Source: Allobaculum fili | Lineage (GTDB): Bacteria > Bacillota_I > Bacilli_A > Erysipelotrichales > Erysipelotrichaceae | Assembly: GCF_020969955.1 (NCBI RefSeq) | Contig: NZ_JAHDSX010000060.1 | Coordinates: 1 to 11,682 of the forward strand | DNA length: 11,682 nt | Direction of reading: 5' to 3' | Shown here: positions 9,648 through 11,274 of the stretch, one piece after another | Numbering within the stretch: position 1 is the stretch's first letter | How the letters are laid out: each line of letters starts with the position of its first letter | Made by a program: the position numbers and the translations under genes | Notes under the pieces: model-generated | Database searches by the model: none | What the model saw: only the letters and a program-made list of their open reading frames with translations | What the model was told of the DNA's origin: nothing

Positions 9648-11274
9648 CAAAAAGAGAATCTCGTTTTGCAATAATTCTCTCTACCCGCTGTCTAGCTTCT
9701 TTCAGCCGGTCTTGAAGGATCTTATATCTGGCTCCCATGACTTTCTGCTGCTCCAGATCAAGTTTGGGAATTTCCATATTTTTAAGATCCGGGGTTGTAA
9801 TATTTTTTATAACAGAGCCTTTACTGATGGATTCCAATCTGTTTTTACCGTCGCTCGAAGTGAGGTAAGCCATCAAATACCGAGGATCAATTTTTTGAAG
9901 ATCGGGGCGGATAACAAGAAAGTTGCTGCTAGGAATCACATGCATTTCTCCAATACCTTCCATAAAAGCAATCTGTGGTGCGACCCCTTTGGAAAAGATC
10001 AGAATATCACCATCCATTAAATAAATATCATTTTGAGCTGAAGAATCTTCGCCGATTGTCTCCAATGCGGAGATATCAATCTGCTGATCACGCAGTGCCT
10101 TGGCTGTAAGAAGATAACAATCGCCTTCAGCATTCTCATTCATCTTAGCCAGATTTTTTCCTCTGAATACTTCAGCAACATCCTTAACACAGTATGTATT
10201 CTCAAAGTCTCTCAGACTAGTCTGAGTGTAGTAGCGCTGCGGATATAAAAGGGAGCTGTCAGCTTCTGCCTCTGCAACACTTAAATCGTTAAAGAGGGTC
10301 TCGTGATTACGAATCGTTGACTCTAATCCTTCCAGAAGCTCCTTCTGTTTCTGCAAACTCTTTTTTCGGCCAAGAGAAAAGATACTATTAAGATCACAGA
10401 TTTGAATCTTCGAATTCTCTTTTTTACTCAGAATAAGAAGCACAGGAGAAATAGAAGTATTAGGGAGGATTCCAGCAGGAAGCTGAATGACTTTTTCAAT
10501 AACGCTGCTCTTGATCAATGCATTGACGAACTTCTTTTCGGAGTTAGAGAAGAGGACAGAAGGCGTAGTGACCAAAGCGGCAATTCCATCTTTATCCAAT
10601 GAAATAAGAGCATCATTAACCAACTCAGCCTCGTACGACCGAACGTTGATTTCTTCACCATTAAAAGCGAGGATTGGTGTGCGCTCTACTCGTCTCATTC
10701 CAAATGGAAGTTCTCCAAGAACAAGATCAAATCGGCCTTTTTCTGTTTTATGATTCAAGCGATCGATTCTCACTTCGATGGGCAGGTTAAACACCCTGCT
10801 AACAATTTGCTGAAGCATGCAATGTCTGGGGTTCAGGTCTTCTGAAACAATTCTGGCAGTCGGGAAATCCTGCGCCGCTTTTGCAGTAATATTTCCACGA
10901 CACGAATTCATATTGAGGATTCGCAGCGGTTTTACATCCCCCTCAAAAAGTCGAATCAGATCAGGAAGAATCTTCAGACCGTTTCCGGGTTCCGTAGAAT
11001 CAGTAATCGAAAGAGCATTAATAATGGTACTCTTGATCCCTTCATAATCCAGATCCCGTAAAGCCTCTGTCCATAAAGAGACAGCCTCCTGATTAGCCCC
11101 GTCTACATTGATGTCGCTAATGTCTTTGTTTAATACATGGGCTGCTGCTACAGCCAGATTTAAAATTTCTTCACTTGATTTGACAGCGCTCAGCTCTTTC
11201 ATTGGAGATTCAACTTTTAAAATCTCCAGATCACTAGCAATTCTTTCTTTTGATGTCTTTACTTCTGTTGGCAA
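9616..11274 (-). CDS. HsdM-like methyltransferase-fold domain fused to a single HsdS-type TRD; catalytic and SAM motifs are non-canonical
   Basis: 552 aa with a TTG start and SD AGGAGG 7 nt upstream. Residues 97-290 align by eye with the window's HsdM: [30 protein letters not shown] against [46 protein letters not shown] aligns with [24 protein letters not shown] with DFVMANPPFN, and [24 protein letters not shown] is the usual post-motif-VIII strand. Residues 362-540 look like one HsdS TRD plus a conserved helix ([12 protein letters not shown]...NFLVIRP...YLMAYLTS...[23 protein letters not shown]). Confidence 0.85.
   Translation of the reverse strand: [552 protein letters not shown]

Follow-up and report, generated by a model that had tools for sequence, protein, structure and literature searches.

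A degenerate HsdM-HsdS fusion with paired promoter palindromes beside a Type I restriction-modification locus of Allobaculum fili

Type I restriction is the commonest target of the anti-restriction proteins of phages and plasmids. To our knowledge, few systems watch over it, namely PrrC, PARIS, some retrons and Ronin, and the regulation of Type I operons has only recently begun to emerge through RptR and HsdC. Here we analyse an 11,682-nucleotide stretch of Allobaculum fili (contig NZ_JAHDSX010000060.1, in full the window of what follows), in which a gene pair adjoins a complete Type I restriction-modification system on the same minus strand. The first gene of the pair encodes a 552-amino-acid (aa) protein that, judged by its domain matches, is an HsdM fused to one target recognition domain (TRD) of HsdS, that is, to half a specificity subunit. 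We refer to it and its relatives as MS-like proteins. An initial annotation had proposed that it is a pseudo-enzyme repurposed as a DNA-sequence sensor or scaffold; the partner gene, the link to a restriction-modification operon and the putative operators described below go beyond that proposal.

By analogy, the closest functional precedent of the MS-like module would be Ronin. In Escherichia coli ECOR55, HsdM and HsdS restrain a 61-aa toxin, RonA, until Ocr or ArdA appears; the system is independent of methylase activity, an F287G mutant being functional, requires an upstream non-coding region and adjoins restriction-modification or BREX genes (bioRxiv 10.1101/2023.04.06.535777). Shared with the MS-like module are an M·S assembly as the (here proposed) sensor, a small coupled partner and a restriction-modification neighbourhood, and in the A. 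fili protein, which has relatives paired with ParE or TIR proteins, the catalytic motifs are lost. Ronin differs in having separate HsdM and HsdS chains with intact motifs, and RonA is a membrane peptide unrelated to any of the partners found here. Moreover, Ronin usually occurs without hsdR, whereas the window contains HsdR (536-3625) and a soluble 183-aa alpha/beta partner with no recognisable toxin fold. PrrC-EcoprrI, an anticodon nuclease silenced by a Type I enzyme and unleashed when a phage inhibits restriction (via bioRxiv 10.1101/2023.04.06.535777), likewise embeds a toxic effector in a Type I locus, an effector role that for the partner in the window is our proposal. Unlike the MS-like module, its sensor is the working enzyme itself, with neither a dedicated dead methylase nor an operator pair.

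RptR (PMC12255303) and HsdC of the Mollicutes (PMC5282649) are first-gene repressors of Type I operons with conserved sites. As with these and the controller (C) proteins, the MS-like gene, as candidate regulator, stands first in its operon with repeated putative operators over its own promoter, and both protein and site are conserved across taxa. Those regulators, however, are helix-turn-helix or helical proteins of 9-12 kDa, whereas the MS-like protein, in which a methylase and a TRD are fused, has a mass of 63 kDa and an obligate partner. Two further proteins resemble parts of it. Esub1 (SpyM3_0890 of Streptococcus pyogenes; PDB 8VSQ/8VSR) is an orphan half-HsdS homodimer bound by the phage protein paratox, and its authors proposed a transcription-factor-like DNA binder targeted by the phage protein (PMC11754733); it has no methylase domain and lies in another kind of locus. 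The second, an M-S fusion from Vibrio vulnificus YJ016 termed an "intact MTase" (PDB 7EEW), was crystallised with Ocr, evidence that an anti-restriction protein of the DNA-mimic type can be bound by M and S joined in a single chain. Its PDB entry describes a methyltransferase, and its sequence identity with the A. fili protein is 16%.

Degenerate catalytic motifs in a single-chain M-S protein

The MS-like gene (9616-11274, minus strand, from the list of open reading frames (ORFs) and codon reading) starts with TTG, and AGGAGG lies 7 nt upstream. Its product consists of a helical N-terminus (residues 1-100), an HsdM-like Rossmann domain (about 100-310), a linker, an HsdS-type TRD (about 356-505; 9760-10209, minus strand) related to that of Esub1 (PDB 8VSQ), and a long C-terminal conserved-region helix (507-548). 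Pfam recognises N6_Mtase at 43.9 bits (cut-off 20.4) over residues 176-309, which correspond to profile positions 118-262 only, just the C-terminal two-thirds of the profile, and Methylase_S at 40.3 bits over residues 360-526; the same scan found no helix-turn-helix domain in the MS-like protein. An AlphaFold model (pLDDT 86.5, pTM 0.83) contains Rossmann strands b1-b5, and model and hhalign (probability 100%) agree on a class I Rossmann fold with the motif order X-I-II-III-IV...VIII. Foldseek ranked 7eew_A first among PDB entries, as the best whole-length structural match (E 1e-20, 550 aligned columns), followed by CamA, HsdM structures and BpuSI.

Compared with the M2S1 core of Type I enzymes such as EcoKI and EcoR124I, the MS-like protein has the same Rossmann domain, motif order, TRD and conserved-region helix. 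The HsdS succession of a TRD and then a conserved-region helix is evident from Methylase_S, from matches to HsdS structures in the PDB and to Esub1, and from helix 507-548. In contrast to an HsdS chain with its two hypervariable TRDs, there is a single TRD, and it is the best-conserved domain. Unlike in M2S1, a single chain holds both M and half of S, no member of the family sample described below has a canonical motif IV, and the associated site occurs essentially in the protein's own promoter alone; the A. fili protein has also lost motifs X, I and VIII.

Codon reading of the minus strand gave GELPFG at 10716-10699, NMNSCRGN at 10914-10891 and GLKILP at 10980-10963, which the initial annotation had set against motifs IV (NPPF), I (DPCCGSGG) and X (GEFYTP) of the true HsdM in the window. 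BLASTP against that HsdM reproduced this register but only at E=0.23, and it therefore needed independent support from profiles and from the model. Aligned alone to a profile of 13 true HsdMs, the protein matched over residues 139-305 (probability 96.7%, E 4e-10), with ELPF on the NPPF of D-x-V-x-x-NPPF. Comparison of the family profile with the HsdM profile (hhalign, probability 100%, E 6e-44) reached motifs X and I; here DPCCGSGG was matched by N121-MNSCRGN, the motif II Glu by D146, gDTl (motif III) by IDRL and NPPF by E188-LPF. Furthermore, in the model the motif I loop follows strand b1 (118-122) and the motif IV loop strand b4 (182-188). The profile alignment that the annotation had suggested as a check thus bore out its registers for motifs I and IV, whereas that for motif X has to be moved: by hhalign and MAFFT, GEFYTP aligns with TDSTEP (T91-P96; 10987-11004, minus strand), of which the sole Pro is kept. 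GLKILP (10963-10980, minus strand) lies 7 residues downstream, where, in the model and by hhalign, the helix after motif X begins. Motif X is degenerate all the same.

In motif I (10891-10914, minus strand) N121 stands in place of the Asp and C125 in place of the first Gly, while G127 is kept. The motif II region SEDLN (10831-10845, minus strand) keeps its acidic residue, D146. Motif IV (10699-10716, minus strand) reads G-E188-L-P-F-G by codon reading and by profile alignments. An additional loss, absent from the annotation, concerns motif VIII (HsdM pattern LPxx[LIVM]F), where the stacking aromatic is replaced by Leu270 (10465-10467, minus strand); this position is F in 13/13 HsdMs and F or Y in 40/66 MS-like proteins. 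Moreover, the protein departs from near-invariant residues of its own family (W216A, R250V, G144S). With motifs X, I, IV and VIII all hit, the pseudo-enzyme call is upheld for this protein and, on alignment grounds, it is very probably not a working N6-methyladenine (m6A) methyltransferase. The loss of motif I, from which the annotation predicted poor binding of S-adenosylmethionine (SAM), is less decisive, since the protein retains G127, D146 and the Asp of motif III; active M.TaqI tolerates Ala at the first Gly position, and residual SAM binding is therefore possible.

A word-indexed homology search returned 3 matches only, and an exhaustive HMMER search was used instead. At E <= 1e-3 it collected 4738 representatives, of which 1061 remained at E <= 1e-10, and the best matches were nearly all of 540-620 aa with the same HsdM-like domain and one TRD. 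The family profile matches solved structures of EcoR124 HsdM (E 4e-58), of Esub1 through its TRD and dimerisation helix (E 1e-35) and of V. vulnificus 7EEW (E 2.5e-33). Members come from Firmicutes, relatives of the Mollicutes, Spirochaetes and Alphaproteobacteria, and literature searches found no description of the family. Contrary to the picture of an isolated degenerate HsdM paralogue, the protein therefore belongs to a large family in which motif IV is non-canonical throughout. Across 147 representatives, position 1 of motif IV is N in 47, D in 35, E in 20, F in 11, H in 11 and Y in 8, and position 2 is P in 39; motif I is far better kept (D in 121, first G in 128, second G in 129), as is the motif II acid (E or D in 140). 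In an unbiased sample of 66 non-identical members, gathered via the neighbouring small gene, (N/D/S)PP(Y/F/W) did not occur once, the commonest forms being NYPF, DYPW and NYPW, while D..G.G of motif I was intact in 52. All 16 true HsdMs of the same loci have NPP[FY], GEF/YYTP and DPxxGxG. With canonical motif IV in 0/66 of one group and 16/16 of the other, the pattern is not due to chance. The most eroded branch comprises the A. fili protein, P0005 (32% identity, EIPL) and P0006 (35% identity, EIPF, with LNMFSAFG at motif I). Catalytic loss is thus strongly indicated for the A. fili protein, and some members of the family may still be enzymes, since most keep motif I and N/D-Y-P-F/W.

These motif states bear on two alternatives. 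One is that the protein is still a methyltransferase with an unorthodox active site, in the manner of Erm and KsgA, which function with N-I/L-P-Y, and that it methylates sites of the GTT-N6-AAC type, including those in its own promoter, as an epigenetic switch. Half of the family combines N/D-Y-P-F/W with intact motifs I and II and often a motif VIII aromatic, adenines are present in each half-site, and the A. fili protein keeps G127, D146, the motif III Asp, P190 and F191. We consider this improbable, given E188, N121, C125 and L270, the loss of the motif X aromatics, W216 and R250, and a drift of motif IV position 1 to F, Y, H or E (F/Y in 19/147) that would be intolerable for an enzyme. Inactive METTL14 moreover carries EPPL for DPPW at motif IV, which the E-x-P-F of the A. 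fili protein echoes. In METTL14, too, position 1 is replaced while the fold and a nucleic-acid-binding role are kept, although it is eukaryotic, acts on RNA and partners an active paralogue.

The other alternative, a decaying and functionless HsdM/HsdS paralogue, would account for the many conserved residues lost here, and a clearly degraded copy does exist in Thomasclavelia cocleata. It is nonetheless hardly credible for the A. fili gene: the 552-codon ORF is intact, the identical protein is found on 17 contigs, the model is confident and the TRD residues are conserved, both promoter palindromes are perfect and the RBS is strong. Furthermore, relatives at 32-35% identity share the substitutions (E-I/L-P at motif IV and, in P0006, N-M at motif I).

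Paired palindromes at the MS-like promoter and a conserved TRD

Scanning of upstream regions for shared bipartite palindromes revealed two perfect 16-bp copies 60 bp apart in front of the MS-like gene, the sole matches in the window even with 2 mismatches allowed. The distal copy, AAGTTTATATAAACTT (11348-11363; 11363-11348 on the coding strand), abuts a -35-like TTGAAT (11346-11341), which is separated by 17 nt from a -10-like CAGAAT (11323-11318). The proximal copy, AAGTTTAAATAAACTT on the minus strand (11288-11303), lies between this -10 element and the ribosome-binding site (RBS) AGGAGG (11287-11282). The palindromes thus bracket the -35/-10 elements and overlap the gene's own promoter, an arrangement typical of controller and toxin-antitoxin-like operons. 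Relatives across phyla have the same layout of box 1, TTGACA, about 17 nt, TATAAT, box 2 and RBS. The common core is GTT-N6-AAC. Most relatives carry TGGTTAT-N-AAAAACCA, and AAGTTT-N4-AAACTT, the version of the window, belongs to the clade in which motif IV opens with E, F or Y. A matched palindrome pair was present at 59/74 loci compared with 8/370 control windows from the same loci, and across loci of 10-22 kb hardly any copy of a locus's own palindrome lies away from the MS-like promoter. The architecture and its enrichment are direct observations, and half-site type tracks the clade of the MS-like protein.

Variants of the boxes occur at several loci. In the clade of L048-L079 the boxes are mirrored hybrids (box 1 TGGTTAT...AATCA, box 2 TGATTAT...AACCA). 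In each box one arm is strong and the other weakened, a pattern suggestive of occupancy that is graded or cooperative. At L117 there is one AGGTATGTGAATACCT box between the -10 element and the RBS, and the upstream palindrome of L120 is of a different type, ATGTATGCAAATACAT.

The boxes persist where the usual 175-aa partner is missing (L011) or replaced (L001, L117, L119, L121), which leaves the MS-like protein as the only constant candidate binder. A symmetric bipartite site would also be expected of a dimer of identical TRDs, and the palindrome with its fixed spacer resembles the symmetric sites of half-HsdS enzymes, such as the GAAN7TTC of EcoR124I-NT (PMC2877798, PMC3320862). On this comparative evidence, operator binding by the MS-like protein, taken as a single step of the model, is likely. 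Esub1, as a methylase-less relative, may read a similar GTT-N6-AAC-type site. The sensor-or-scaffold idea of the annotation is compatible with a matching palindrome pair in the protein's own promoter.

The TRD, which the annotation had regarded as intact, is in fact the best-conserved domain of the family. Mean pairwise identity is 0.30 for the TRD and 0.26 for the methyltransferase domain among the 147 representatives, and 0.35 against 0.30 in the independent sample collected through the small gene; the latter result speaks against an artefact of similarity-ranked matches. The median Smith-Waterman score between MS-like TRDs is 201, compared with 72 for the HsdS TRDs of the same loci. A conserved TRD implies a conserved target. 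As for residues that might read the half-site, K434 was considered as the reader of its variable G/A and rejected, because loci of the AAGTT type keep the Lys, and mutual-information scans of TRD against half-site could not be separated from phylogeny.

The distribution of the site also bears on a further alternative, in which an (MS-like)2 core would act as an alternative specificity module for the neighbouring HsdR. Recruited to modified DNA or to a fixed site, HsdR would then restrict in a methylation-dependent or methylation-independent manner. A complete M with half of S would, as a dimer, be equivalent to M2S1, and the gene adjoins hsdR in many loci. Nevertheless, the protein associates with unrelated HsdR families, with non-Type-I systems or with no HsdR at all, its site is found almost only in its own promoter, and unmethylated restriction at a fixed site would attack the host. 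We regard such recruitment as very improbable.

A coupled, exchangeable partner and the restriction-modification neighbourhood

The end of the MS-like gene is overlapped by a partner gene (9096-9647, minus strand) of 183 aa, or 191 aa if an upstream TTG at 9671 is used. Its homologues, at 30-37% identity, sit behind MS-like genes at other loci, and the two ORFs are closely coupled: the MS-like ORF ends within about 22 nt of the small-gene start in 68 of the 76 loci with enough upstream sequence. The model of the partner (pLDDT 90) is of a soluble protein with an N-terminal helical hairpin and a Rossmann-like alpha/beta domain. G71, G122, H126, S136, P149, L160 and I162 are invariant, and an NELKITK motif is nearly so. 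This 175-aa family comprises at least 275 clusters, none with a Pfam domain, and only sporadic weak helix-turn-helix matches were seen among the homologues. For the partner itself, nothing was found in Pfam, NCBIfam, PADLOC, PHROGs or BFVD or by PDB sequence profile, and Foldseek against the PDB gave generic Rossmann-like folds at best (E 6e-3).

The second gene is translationally coupled and swappable. Usually it encodes the 175-aa protein, and in relatives ParE or an SpbK-like TIR protein. At L117 (1630-3814) the MS-like protein P0003, with DAPF at motif IV and a strong N6_Mtase match, is followed 10 nt downstream by a ParE toxin gene (40 bits), with no ParD-like gene between the two. At L120 (2099-4712) and L122 (3893-6469) an SpbK-like TIR protein of 254-255 aa overlaps or abuts an MS-like gene with D-L/M-P-K/R at motif IV; TIR_2 scores 48 bits in the L120 partner and is present again in that of L122, and the resemblance to SpbK reaches E 3e-26. 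A relation between the 175-aa family and the TIR partner was considered and discarded, hhalign showing none. L001 has an unrelated 167-aa protein in the partner position, L119 another partner of no recognised family, and L011 has no small gene.

The pair stands first and on the same strand in loci of Clostridia, Erysipelotrichales, Bacilli, Haloplasmataceae, Spirochaetales and an alphaproteobacterium. Of 17 genome loci, about 12 have HsdR, HsdM and HsdS of several subtypes, or another restriction-modification set, behind the pair. The operons that it heads are usually of Type I or of a related ATP-dependent kind. In L018 (10528-11844) and L019 (3527-4750) it precedes a DUF2130 protein that begins a restriction-like set of non-Type-I character, continued by an Eco57I-type methylase accompanied by a T5orf172-helicase at L018 and by an SNF2-PLD protein at L019. 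At L017 (near McrBC), L031, L117 and L122 the module has no restriction-modification genes beside it. The partner had no tblastn match in plasmid and phage collections and only 2 loci were found in IMG/VR, so that the module is cellular rather than viral.

Position and promoter together raise the main rival explanation, in which the MS-like protein, perhaps with its small neighbour as a ligand-sensing co-factor, would be a repressor like a C protein, RptR or HsdC that times or limits the downstream operon, with no toxin or abortive role. The operator-promoter-operator architecture is conserved, the pair comes first in the operon, in many loci with hsdR or hsdM following after 12-100 nt, there are precedents for dedicated Type I repressors (PMC12255303, PMC5282649), and the partner is Rossmann-like, possibly ligand-binding and without a toxin signature. 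We find this explanation rather unlikely, because the module also occurs away from restriction-modification genes, the partner can be ParE or TIR, and in the window a terminator-like hairpin (8776-8760 on the coding strand) and 640 bp (8453-9095) separate the partner gene from hsdM.

The true Type I system of the window (536-8452, minus strand) is complete. HsdM (6935-8452, minus strand) has canonical motifs including NPPF, HsdR lies at 536-3625, and hsdS is in pieces at 6451-7014 (minus strand), 5837-6454 (plus strand) and 3677-4843 (minus strand). A tyrosine recombinase integrase (4831-5871) lies between opposed hsdS pieces, and an inverted repeat of 35 nt, 80% complementary (4264-4298/5866-5900), falls in the hsdS central conserved region. 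From its layout the locus looks phase-variable, with an integrase-driven hsdS shufflon. An Rfam scan of the window gave no match. The gap and the window ends contained no hidden gene remnants by blastx against all locus ORFs save at 159-275, where a weak match (38% over 39 aa) to a Transposase_mut fragment of L017 may mark a transposase remnant past the end of hsdR.

Other loci hold signs of turnover. The window's hsdR (536-3625) and hsdM (6935-8452) are 79-80% identical in DNA to those of L011, whereas the MS-like proteins share 35% aa identity and L011 has no small gene; the upstream module thus evolves or is swapped much faster than the restriction-modification genes. In L033 (9400-10216, Thomasclavelia cocleata DSM 1551) and L034, remnants of the pair, namely a 116-aa C-terminal MS-like fragment and the last ~70 codons of the small gene, lie beside an intact Type I system, and the module can therefore be lost. 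In L001-L005, the loci of P0002, the MS-like/167-aa/Type I cluster lies near a Hachiman-like pair (HamA and helicase) and an AAA_21 ATPase gene, a defence-island setting in which an ISL3 transposase parts the Hachiman-like group from the MS-like cluster.

A proposed sensor module at restriction-modification loci

The module has a toxin-antitoxin-like anatomy: its first gene encodes a large, probably DNA-binding protein, the second is small, coupled to the first and in some relatives a toxin gene, and putative operators lie over the promoter. We hypothesise that the MS-like protein forms a homodimer via its C-terminal helix, like the symmetric half-HsdS enzymes, and that the conserved TRDs of the two chains would read the pair of 16-bp palindromes bracketing its own promoter. 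It would thereby be the autorepressor and sensor half of a two-gene module, an M·S mimic that keeps the promoter, and probably also the partner, silent until its DNA-binding groove is occupied. The most plausible trigger would be a DNA-mimic anti-restriction protein of the Ocr or ArdA kind, whose binding would derepress the operon and/or free the partner; in members that bind SAM, a phage SAM-degrading enzyme could be an alternative trigger. The likeliest job of the module would be a back-up or control layer for restriction. The catalytic losses, the family, the synteny and the diversity of partners are observed directly. From the comparative data we infer repression by the MS-like protein as the box binder, the 175-aa protein as an effector and the identity of the trigger. 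The reading we favour is the whole chain, in which an M·S mimic devoid of catalysis would bind its own operators, control the partner and guard or regulate the restriction-modification locus; we put it forward tentatively, at a little short of an even chance.

Several points weigh against this reading. The MS-like family is known here from sequences alone, and most members retain motif I, the motif II acid and N/D-Y-P-F/W, so that the family may be, or may once have been, one of active methylases that simply autoregulate. A 5+6+5 palindrome would equally suit a helix-turn-helix dimer, and the link between half-site and clade is confounded by phylogeny and may reflect shared ancestry only. The 175-aa partner resembles no known toxin or enzyme and could be a co-regulator rather than an effector. 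The diversity of partners is drawn from a small number of loci, namely two with TIR, one with ParE and two with unrecognised partners. Lastly, the hairpin and the 640 bp in front of hsdM make direct transcriptional control of the restriction-modification genes doubtful in the window.

A broader version of the favoured reading extends it to a widespread class of guards, in which a dead HsdM-HsdS decoy seated on two promoter operators would restrain a swappable effector, and a DNA mimic would titrate the decoy off, derepressing the operon and unleashing the effector. Decoy immunity would here be built into transcription itself. We consider this conceivable but doubtful. Decoys or guards of restriction and restriction-modification controllers are kinds already known, whereas the MS-like family appears to be undescribed, large and associated with restriction-modification.

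In summary, MS-like genes bear the labels "N-6 DNA methylase" or "type I M protein" in annotations, and methylome and restriction-modification surveys will miscount them as active methylases. If our reading is correct, it would add to the few known systems around Type I restriction a large multi-phylum family in which a methyltransferase/TRD scaffold has been recycled as an operator-binding sensor with exchangeable effectors, together with a new family, absent from Pfam, of candidate effectors or co-factors. Moreover, a protein-DNA code is predicted in which TRD type and GTT-N6-AAC operator go together, and this could account for what Esub1, the orphan half-HsdS, does.

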